This document shows positions 30,001 to 33,000 of a stretch of 64,000 nt of DNA, in pieces (position 1 is the stretch's first letter; the number at the start of each line of letters is the position of its first letter). Made by a program: the position numbers. The stretch lies in NCBI RefSeq assembly GCF_036507355.1, contig NZ_AP027877.1, one strand, 5' to 3'. The DNA comes from Escherichia coli. Lineage in GTDB: Bacteria > Pseudomonadota > Gammaproteobacteria > Enterobacterales > Enterobacteriaceae.

Positions 30001-33000
30001 TCGGCAAAGAACAGGAAATCGGGACGAACAATCTTGTACTGTTCAGCTTCAACATAAGCGATTCCCAGTGACGACTGCCCTGTGTACTGTGGATTACGAT
30101 ACCAGAAAGCAAATCCTTCACGTTTGGTTTCGATCTCAAAAACCTTGGTTTCCCAATGGTTCAACAGAGCCGGATAGTTCCCGCTTTCGTCACACAACAA
30201 ATGGTGTTTCCAGACTGGAAGGTCAGCTTCCTTTTCACCTTCACGCACCCTGGTCATTTCAAACTTGTTCGCCGGCCTGACCAGATCCACATCCTGCGGT
30301 TCGGTACTCATTTCGACGATTTGACGATAGGCCTCTTTACGCTCATCTTTCAACGACTTGATTTGCGGTGTGTACTCGGCCAGCCACGCCTTCGCCAGTC
30401 TATCGGCCTCGCCATCGAAGTAATCCTGCCCCTCCATCACCAGCCCCATGCCAGCAACGGTAACACGAGCCTCCATGATTGCTTCCAGATATTCCTCTGC
30501 ATCCTCTTCTCGATCCGCAACCTTATCGGCCAGATATTCGACATAGGTACGTGAAACATCCGGGCTGAAAATTCGGTGATGCTGCCAACTTACTGATTTA
30601 GTGTATGATGGTGTTTTTAAGGTGCTTGCGTGGCTTCCATTTCCATCAGATGTCCTTCCTGCTCCGCTACTGAAGGCGTGGTGCGTAACGGCAAAAGCAC
30701 TGCCGGACATCAGCGCTATCTCTGCTCTCATTGCCGTAAAACATGGCAACTGCAGTTCACTTACACCGCCTCTCAGCCCGGTACGCACCAGAAAATCATT
30801 GATATGGCCATGAATGGCGTCGGATGTCGCGCCAGTGCACGCATTATGGGCGTTGGCCTCAACACGATTTTCCGCCATTTAAAAAACTCAGGCCGCAGTC
30901 GGTAACCTCGCGCATACAGCCGGGCAGTGATGTGATTGTCTGCGCTGAAATGGACGAACATTGGGGCTACGTCGGTGCTAAATCACGTCAGCGCTGGCTG
31001 TTTTACGCGTATGACAGGCTCCGGAAGACGGTTGTGGCGCACGTCTTCGGTGAACGCACTCTGGCCACACTGGAGCGTCTTCTGAGCCTGCTGTCGGCCT
31101 TTGAGGTCGTGGTATGGGACGGATGGCTGGCCGCTGTATGAATCACGCCTGAAGGGAAAGCTGCACGTTATCAGCAAGCGTTACACTCAGCGCATTGAGC
31201 GACATAATCTGAGACAACATCTGGCAAGGCTGGGACGGAAGTCACTGTCGTTCTCAAAATCGGTGGAGCTGCATGACAAGGTCATCGGGCATTATCTGAA
31301 CATAAAACACTATCAGTAAGTTAGAGTCATTACCGGGCCAAATCGATAAATCGCTCGATGAAGCCTCACTCAGCCTGCGCGCCGGTTCCCTGCGTACCAT
31401 TACGCACATCCTGCTGCCGCTGCTGCGCCCGGCGATCCTCTCGGCGCTGATTTACAGCTTTGTGCGCGCCATTACCACCGTCAGCGCCATTGTGTTCCTC
31501 GTCACGCCGGATACCCGCGTAGCGACGGCTTACATCCTCAACCGCGTGGAAGATGGCGAATACGGTGTAGCGATTGCCTACGGTTCCATTCTGATCGTGG
31601 TGATGCTGGCGATTATTTTCATCTTTGACTGGCTGATCGGTGAATCACGTACCTCCCGTTCAAAAGCCAAAAACCAGGCGTAATGGAGCGCACTATGACT
31701 CAGAAAAATTTCGTTGAACTGCGCAACGTCACTAAACGATTTGGCAGTAATACGGTAATCGACAATATCAACCTCACCATCCCGCAGGGGCAAATGGTGA
31801 CGCTGCTCGGCCCGTCCAGCTGCGGCAAAACCACTATTTTGCGCCTGGTTGCCGGGCTGGAAAAACCAAGCGAAGGGCAAATTTTCATTGATGGCGAAGA
31901 CGTCACCCATCGCTCTATTCAGCAGCGCGATATCTGTATGGTGTTTCAGTCCTATGCCCTGTTCCCGCATATGTCGCTGGGAGAGAATGTCGGTTATGGC
32001 CTGAAAATGCTCGGCGTACCGCGCGCAGAGCTGAAAGCCCGCGTCAAAGAGGCGTTGGCGATGGTGGATGTGGAAGGATTCGAAGACCGCTTTGTCGATC
32101 AGATCTCCGGCGGGCAGCAGCAGCGCGTGGCGCTGGCCCGCGCGCTGATCCTCAAGCCGAAAGTGCTGCTGTTTGATGAGCCGTTGAGTAACCTCGACGC
32201 CAACCTGCGTCGCAGCATGCGCGACAAGATCCGCGAGTTGCAAAAGCAGTTTGATATCACCTCGCTGTACGTCACCCACGATCAGAGCGAAGCCTTTGCG
32301 GTTTCTGATACTGTGCTGGTGATGAACAAGGGACACATCATGCAGATCGGCTCACCGCAGGATCTTTACCGCCAGCCCGCCTCCCGCTTTATGGCGAGCT
32401 TTATGGGCGATGCCAACCTGTTCCCGGCAACCTTCAGCGACGGATACGTTGATATCTACGGCTATCATCTGCCGCGCCCGCTGCACTTTGGTACACAGGG
32501 TGAAGGGATGGTCGGTGTGCGCCCGGAAGCGATCACGCTCAGCGATCGCGGCGAAGAGAGCCAGCGCTGCGTGATCCGCCATGTCGCCTATATGGGGCCG
32601 CAGTATGAAGTGACGGTGGAATGGCACGGGCAGGAGATATTATTGCAGGTCAACGCTACGCGTCTGCAACCGGACGTCGGCGAGCAGTATTATCTTGAAA
32701 TCCATCCGTACGGCATGTTTGTTCTGGCGGATGCGGCATAACGTTTTGTGGTTTTGTAGGCCGGATAAGGCGCTTGTGCCGCCATCCGGCAATGCCTGAT
32801 GCGCTGCGCTTATCAGGCCTACAATGAACGATGTAGACCCGATAAACCCTCAGCTTCGCGCTTTTAACGCGGCGATATCCGCAGGCGTGGTGCGACAGCA
32901 CCCGCCAATCAACCGTGCGCCAGCGGCCTGCCACTGCGGCAGATAATCCGCCAGCTGCGCGCAATGTTCACCGTGATGATGCCAGGTTTTGCTCACGGCA

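Follow-up and report, generated by a model that had tools for sequence, protein, structure and literature searches.

An IS1 element between truncated yagJ and afuB genes in Escherichia coli: a probable recombination joint left by loss of the argF segment

The stretch of Escherichia coli DNA analysed here, 64,000 nucleotides of contig NZ_AP027877.1 (assembly GCF_036507355.1) and called the window in the following, carries an insertion sequence (IS) of the IS1 family between the remnants of two genes, yagJ and afuB. In K-12, two IS1 copies lie at the corresponding locus and enclose the argF segment. We suggest, with a probability of about 0.65, that the lineage of the window once had this segment and lost it by recombination between two IS1 copies, a reading that is based on the comparison of sequences among strains. 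The joint is an ordinary scar of IS-mediated deletion or rearrangement; such scars, and this locus, are already known from K-12. It explains why the strain wants the argF/xylonate segment of K-12, and it flags yagJ, afuB and probably also afuC (which carries the replacement G42S in its Walker A motif) as pseudogenes or orphans.

The features of the locus are collected in Table 1. The element begins at 30575 with the left end GGTGATGCTGCCAACTTACTGAT and ends at 31334 with ...ATCAGTAAGTTAGAGTCATTACC. Its terminal inverted repeats agree at 18 of 23 positions, and its left end is that of the IS1 copies of K-12, as is typical of the family; the left-end pattern occurs three times in the window, with no occurrence expected by chance. 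Also in keeping with IS1, insA encodes a zinc ribbon and a helix-turn-helix domain and is followed by the A6C motif for programmed -1 frameshifting. The insB' frame, which the first-pass annotation had called broken, is indeed split: It ends seven codons past the 2-bp deletion, and the DDE_Tnp_IS1 domain is divided over two open reading frames (ORFs) that match parts 1-67 and 62-131 of the Pfam profile, so that no intact insB' is present. A 6-bp deletion between 31205 and 31206 keeps the frame. The element is 91.1% identical to IS1B of K-12, and the alignment of the two contains 60 mismatches, one gap of 2 bp and one of 6 bp. The same annotation had described the element as full-length; this holds for the two intact ends but not for the length, which is 760 bp and not 768 bp. 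From its coding state we predict that the element is unable to make its own transposase and that it is an old, fixed and transposition-defective copy. Since it keeps both ends and has a direct repeat of 355 bp at a distance of 12.7 kb downstream, it is at the same time predicted to be still able to recombine and to be mobilised in trans.

Table 1. Features at and around the IS1 element (positions in the window)
Feature	Position	Strand	Basis or remark
yagJ remnant	29745-30574	-	coding sequence annotated in K-12 corresponds to 29745-30476; junction as on the yagJ side of MG1655 IS1C
Left 9-bp flank, TGAAAATTC	30566-30574		sequence
IS1, 760 bp, IS1F-like defective allele	30575-31334	+	terminal repeats 30575-30597 and 31312-31334
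insA, intact, 91 amino acids, GTG start	30630-30905	+	Pfam Zn_ribbon_InsA and HTH_Tnp_IS1 (PF03811, PF12759)
insB', broken into two ORFs, 30824-31141 and 31101-31319	30824-31319	+	2-bp deletion between 31117 and 31118
IS1B/C-type (type II) patch, IS1 positions 293, 298, 301, 304 and 345	30867-30919	+	alleles private to the IS1B/C type
A6C motif TTAAAAAAC, programmed -1 frameshift	30879-30887	+	sequence
Right 9-bp flank, GGGCCAAAT	31335-31343		sequence
afuB' 3' fragment, C-terminus of an ABC permease, last 349 bp	31335-31683	+	Pfam BPD_transp_1, profile positions 78-174 of 184
afuC, orphan ATPase gene, G42S in Walker A	31695-32741	+	comparison with K-12
Truncated IS1, IS1 positions 1-355, cut by IS2	43996-44350	+	direct repeat of the IS1 at 30575

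The 9-bp flanks of the element agree at only two of nine positions, and no target duplication of 5-12 bp, a range that includes the 8-9 bp duplicated by elements of the IS1 family, surrounds it. The flanks had already been reported as unequal, and no duplication had been misread. The flanks were aligned to a K-12 reference, which had been proposed as a check. MG1655 carries IS1B (279163-279930) and IS1C (290634-291401) in the same orientation, separated by 10,703 bp that comprise an IS30 fragment, ISX, yagB, yagA, yagEFGH, xynR, argF, argL and ykgS, in agreement with the arrangement that the first-pass annotation had given. The left junction of the IS1 in the window is nucleotide-identical to the yagJ side of IS1C, and the right junction is nucleotide-identical to the afuB' side of IS1B; thus, the flanks are a yagJ remnant and a 3' fragment of afuB, as they had been named. 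Alignment of the window with MG1655 and NCM3722 therefore places the outer flank of IS1C on the left and the outer flank of IS1B on the right of one element in the same orientation, which is the configuration expected of a recombination joint. The argF segment had been called absent, and it is: A BLAST search of the MG1655 locus against the 64-kb window matched only a 48-bp IS terminus, which lies elsewhere in the window.

The likeness to the K-12 locus, which belongs to the cryptic prophage CP4-6, and to its derivative in NCM3722 and WG1 extends to the neighbouring genes, with yagK-yagJ' to the left of the IS1 and afuB'-afuC-mmuM-mmuP-IS5 to its right. However, the host of the window is not K-12: Over 7 kb of flanks there are 14 single-nucleotide polymorphisms (SNPs) and one indel (8 mismatches and an 8-bp indel in 3.0 kb on the left, 6 mismatches in 4.0 kb on the right), the IS5 that adjoins mmuP has the opposite orientation, a lactate-utilisation block stands in place of ykfC-insN, and the IS1 is an IS1F-like allele of 760 bp that is 91% identical to IS1B/C rather than a type II copy. 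In its 768-bp form, the joint with a single IS1 is present in the finished genomes of K-12 NCM3722, WG1, CY598 and the pig isolate PD7. For NCM3722, a deletion of the 11 kb that separate the two IS1 insertions in MG1655 has been described, with one IS1 left behind (Lyons et al., PMC3045373). Moreover, deletions between direct IS copies arise often in laboratory cultures: Among 520 mutation-accumulation lines, 98 such events were counted, and IS1 accounted for 44 (PMC5009759). With the 760-bp allele, the joint occurs in no complete RefSeq genome of E. coli (best match 96.7%). It is shared by five or more independent draft assemblies, whose identity to the window is about 99.9% over 9.8-13 kb (99.94% over 13 kb).

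Position 704 of the IS1 in NCM3722 is T, while IS1B, IS1C and the copies of WG1, CY598 and PD7 have A. Judged from these sequences, T704 either is private to NCM3722 or stems from a short tract of conversion; it yields a different transposase accession. We considered it as an argument against an origin by deletion and rejected this idea, given that WG1, CY598 and PD7 share A704 with IS1B/C.

The interpretation of the joint as the product of recombination between two IS1 copies, which the first-pass annotation had derived from the unequal flanks, is supported by the comparison of strains at the probability stated above, but the flank mismatch itself is older than the loss. In MG1655, IS1C is flanked by TGAAAATTC and CGGTAACAG and IS1B by TGTGTTCTC and GGGCCAAAT. 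Because neither copy has a target duplication, the mismatch predates the loss of argF and was inherited from older events. An origin of the two-copy state of K-12 from a cointegrate was also considered and rejected, since CGGTAACAG and TGTGTTCTC, the two inner flanks, do not duplicate each other.

One of these older events can be recognized at yagJ. In the window, yagJ is without the 5' 427 bp that 0H26, Z142-6 and E. coli C retain at the same IS1 end, and the complete YagJ homologue of 395 amino acids was found together with the extra 427 bp in three of the sequences compared (L002, L022, L023). A search with YagJ gave no match in the Pfam copy used. Relative to these strains, the IS end and the far flank are the same and the near flank is shorter by 427 bp, and we infer that the truncation resulted from an IS1-promoted adjacent deletion. 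Such deletions are due to intramolecular replicative transposition, and classical cases at gal and elsewhere in the chromosome have been described for IS1. As in these cases, the IS1 end and the far flank are fixed, the near flank is shortened, and neither a target duplication nor a reciprocal junction is seen; the latter (IS1 next to TGAAAATTC, followed by the 5' part of yagJ) was found in none of the 5,426 complete genomes searched. The difference is that the deletion was reconstructed here by strain comparison rather than observed, and that it is older than the strain of the window and common to it and K-12.

The argF segment is not confined to K-12. A 2.2-kb xynR-argF query detected it in 317 of the 5,426 complete genomes, in all of them with at least 99% identity and in none at 80-99%. 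E. coli C (NZ_CP020543.1) has the arrangement of argF between two IS1 copies with the inner junctions of K-12 and a left junction, AAACAAGGTATTGAC next to IS1, at which yagJ is longer by 427 bp. This form was matched by eight complete genomes, which are E. coli C itself or presumed derivatives of it. In the frog isolate ET201 (NZ_CP100994.1), the same arrangement has betA directly on its left. The inner junctions of the segment are identical in all carriers (K-12, E. coli C, ET201), and three different left junctions occur among argF-positive genomes. An early view, according to which argF was confined to K-12 and had never been in the lineage of the window, was dropped when these other left junctions were found in E. 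coli C and ET201. The truncated yagJ is combined with argF in K-12 and occurs without it in the window, PD7, WG1 and NCM3722, and the long yagJ is combined with argF in E. coli C and occurs without it in 0H26 and about 30 other complete genomes. Since all four combinations of left junction and argF exist, one of the two characters has changed more than once, and the scarless loss of argF by recombination between IS1 copies would be by far the cheapest change to be repeated. Because changes of the left junction happened in argF-positive chromosomes, the truncated yagJ junction most likely arose in such a chromosome, and the form seen in the window would be derived from it.

The loss of the argF segment can thus be placed in a series of four steps. 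(i) IS1 would have been fixed against the truncated afuB; the junction is present wherever E. coli carries this allele. (ii) The fragment of 11.5 kb with ykgS-argF-xynR-yagHGFE-yagAB and IS fragments would then have come to lie between identical direct IS1 copies, the state present in K-12, E. coli C and ET201. (iii) From the outer end of the yagJ-side IS1, the adjacent deletion of 427 bp would have created the TGAAAATTC/IS1 junction common to K-12 and the window. (iv) RecA-type recombination between the direct IS1 copies would have removed the argF segment together with one IS1 without leaving a scar. The outcome would be one IS1 with both outer flanks and no target duplication. Later, gene conversion from IS1F-like copies would have overwritten the interior of the IS1, introducing the 2-bp deletion in insB' and leaving the patch of IS1B/C type.

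Several observations weigh against this history. Unequal flanks do not need a loss of argF, and the single IS1 of 0H26 at the longer yagJ junction is without duplication, too. Recombination between identical IS1 copies is scarless, so that the argF-positive past is reached by parsimony only. The SNP phylogeny of the flanks, which was tried as a means to polarise the event, gave a star-like and therefore uninformative tree, and the lineage of the window is not placed inside a K-12-like argF-positive clade. As the IS1 of the window is 91% identical to IS1B/C and thus not of the K-12 type, an extra conversion step is needed. Finally, the argF segment may be young in comparison to the lineage of the window, since the carriers listed or inspected (E. 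coli C, ET201 and K-12 laboratory strains) all match with at least 99% identity.

We regard the best of the alternatives as rather unlikely: The lineage of the window might never have carried argF and might have reached its present form from a single-IS1 state as in 0H26 by the 427-bp IS1-promoted adjacent deletion. K-12 would then have received argF later from a donor resembling E. coli C, with crossovers inside the resident IS1 and in the afuC-mmuP block. The observed states can indeed be arranged as a linear series from the 0H26 type via the window type to the MG1655 type, and the reciprocal junction is missing from the complete genomes. Wherever they were compared, the argF segments are nearly identical: K-12 and E. 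coli C have 5 mismatches in 16 kb, and ET201 has the same inner junctions. PD7 is K-12-like on both flanks yet has a single IS1. Moreover, five private SNPs in the afuB'-mmuP block give the lineage of the window the longest branch there. On the other hand, the recombination tract would have needed its left end inside the 768-bp IS1, as otherwise the 427 bp of yagJ would have been restored. In addition, argF-positive chromosomes demonstrably change at their left junction, as is evident from E. coli C, ET201 and K-12, and loss by recombination between IS1 copies is frequent and documented for this very locus (PMC3045373).

An artefact of assembly, in which collapsed IS1 repeats falsely joined two unrelated contig ends, is conceivable for a multicopy element of which the window itself has three copies or fragments; it is very improbable, since the same joint with the 760-bp allele recurs in the independent draft assemblies mentioned above and the 768-bp form is present in the finished genomes of NCM3722, WG1, CY598 and PD7. 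A simple insertion of IS1 in which point mutations have erased the 9-bp target duplication has nothing beyond an IS1 with both ends in its favour and is refuted for practical purposes by the flanks, which agree at two of nine positions and belong to two truncated genes, yagJ without 427 bp and afuB without afuA and its own 5' part.

The junction of IS1 and afuB' is identical in K-12, 0H26, G47-1, the assembly L011 and a plasmid, and it is universal for this afuB allele, with 467 records at at least 99% identity that include 45 plasmid locations; afuA and the 5' part of afuB were seen only alongside an O157-type allele of 87% identity. The left flanks joined to IS1 and afuB' are yagJ, lldP (in G47-1), the rclC side (in L011), betA via the argF block (in ET201) and a plasmid gene. 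It is tempting to speculate, although we consider the idea doubtful, that the joint of IS1 and afuB' is a long-lived docking site, in which the junctions stay fixed, the interior is repeatedly rewritten by gene conversion (hence mosaics of 768, 762 and 760 bp in near-identical flanks) and whole segments on the left are swapped. The argF block, yagJ, the lldP block, rclC, betA and plasmid DNA might, with the same reserve, be counted among the swapped segments. If this were true, the window would preserve the site in its unoccupied state, as it was before argF entered it in K-12, E. coli C and ET201, and the direction and mechanism by which K-12 gained its second ornithine carbamoyltransferase gene would be given.

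The block from IS1/afuB' through afuC, mmuM and mmuP to IS5 is also found on plasmids, with 45 plasmid-located matches in the complete E. coli genomes searched, which suggests that the afuB'-mmuP block may move as an IS-bounded module. On plasmid pMRSN346355_67.9 (8200-14100), the IS1/afuB' junction is the same, the 4-kb block is 99.85% identical, and it is bounded by IS5; the differences are the location on a plasmid, the unrelated left flank with a DUF4238 gene, and the type II-like IS1 of 768 bp. Compared with K-12, AfuC of the window carries G42S (codon 42, about 31818-31820), which changes GPSGCGKT to GPSSCGKT, and L126V. These replacements would fit the decay of an orphan ATPase that is without its permease and binding-protein genes. 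This exact afuC allele is widespread in public assemblies.

The interior of the IS1 at 30575 has a history of its own. At 98% identity, its backbone matches the 760-bp copies of CFT073 and ATCC 8739 as well as the intact copy of 762 bp in HS. With the IS1F-type copies, represented by IS1F of K-12 next to fecIR and by those of CFT073, ATCC 8739 and HS, it shares this identity and an in-frame 6-bp deletion, and the 760-bp copies of CFT073 and ATCC 8739 also carry the same frameshifting 2-bp deletion. It differs from them by G4 and T40 at the left end and by the type II patch at positions 293-345. For IS1F of K-12, a length of 768 bp has been reported (PMC12428005). The patch is absent from otherwise identical IS1 copies in L012, L013, L015, L016 and L018. 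At this same joint, IS1 occurs as mosaics of 760, 762 or 768 bp while the flanks differ by 0-2 SNPs: Sister assemblies with near-identical flanks have the 760-bp form without the patch, the intact 762-bp form or a 768-bp mosaic. The element thus is a true mosaic of an IS1F-like backbone with a patch of IS1B/C type that would have arisen by gene conversion, and the differences among mosaics in near-identical flanks imply that gene conversion renews the interior of the IS1 at a much higher rate than that at which the surrounding DNA changes. The first-pass annotation had described the element as a hybrid IS1; a hybrid of IS1B and IS1C would not be recognisable: These are identical copies (PMC12428005), and since they are identical in K-12 and E. 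coli C, a recombinant between them has no sequence signature. The conversion mosaics of IS1 at one orthologous site and the occurrence of the argF segment outside K-12 are both caveats for the typing of IS elements and for the use of IS junctions as lineage markers.

In the assembly L011 (about 4880-5640), an intact 762-bp IS1 adjoins afuB' with the rclC side and not yagJ on its left. An IS1B-like patch (positions 522-597) spans the site of the 2-bp lesion in this copy, which suggests that gene conversion repaired the frameshift or averted it.

The truncated IS1 at 43996 is identical to the IS1 at 30575 over all 355 bp, the type II patch included. The two copies enclose 12,661 bp from afuB' to lldP, and this direct repeat makes the site at 30575 prone to further rearrangement. 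The truncated copy adjoins the lactate permease gene, and this lldP/IS1 junction is that of G47-1, where the IS1 is complete and continues into afuB'. In comparison with G47-1, the afuB'-mmuP and IS5-lldP blocks of the window are circularly permuted. The junction of the truncated IS1 with IS2 had no match in a scan of species-representative genomes.

An 8-bp insertion, ATATAATG, is located in the yagL-yagK intergenic region of the window (about 28837-28844). Of the five matching draft assemblies with sequence at this site, four share it (L012, L014, L015, L018). It is present neither in L016 nor in the compared sequences of K-12, PD7, 0H26, Z142-6 and LD39-1.

By its gene content, the stretch from 25.7 to 48.4 kb is best described as a rearranged CP4-6-like island adjoining thrW. 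The IS5 at 35348-36542 is ISKpn26-like and 95.6% identical to IS5A of K-12. It meets the mmuP side at the same nucleotide as IS5A of MG1655, but in inverted orientation, and its flanks CTCC and CAAG form no 4-bp duplication; this element, too, looks like a recombination joint. On its far side, a gntP'-lutCBA-dld-lldP block takes the place of ykfC-eyeA-insN of K-12. A third IS1 fragment, the left 343 bp of an IS1A-like copy on the minus strand with intact insA, is contained in 25293-25683; it is followed by a 48-bp terminus that matches ISX of K-12 and by intF, truncated at 25683. To the left of this fragment are IS3-family and integrase fragments and then betA, and the region of K-12 from yagP to ykgH appears to be missing. 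At the other end, the tRNA-Thr(CGT) gene thrW (48400-48475) is followed by proA, proB and phoE, and leftward of thrW are genes of the left end of CP4-6, namely a CbtA/CbeA-type toxin-antitoxin pair, a RadC-like gene and an antirestriction gene.

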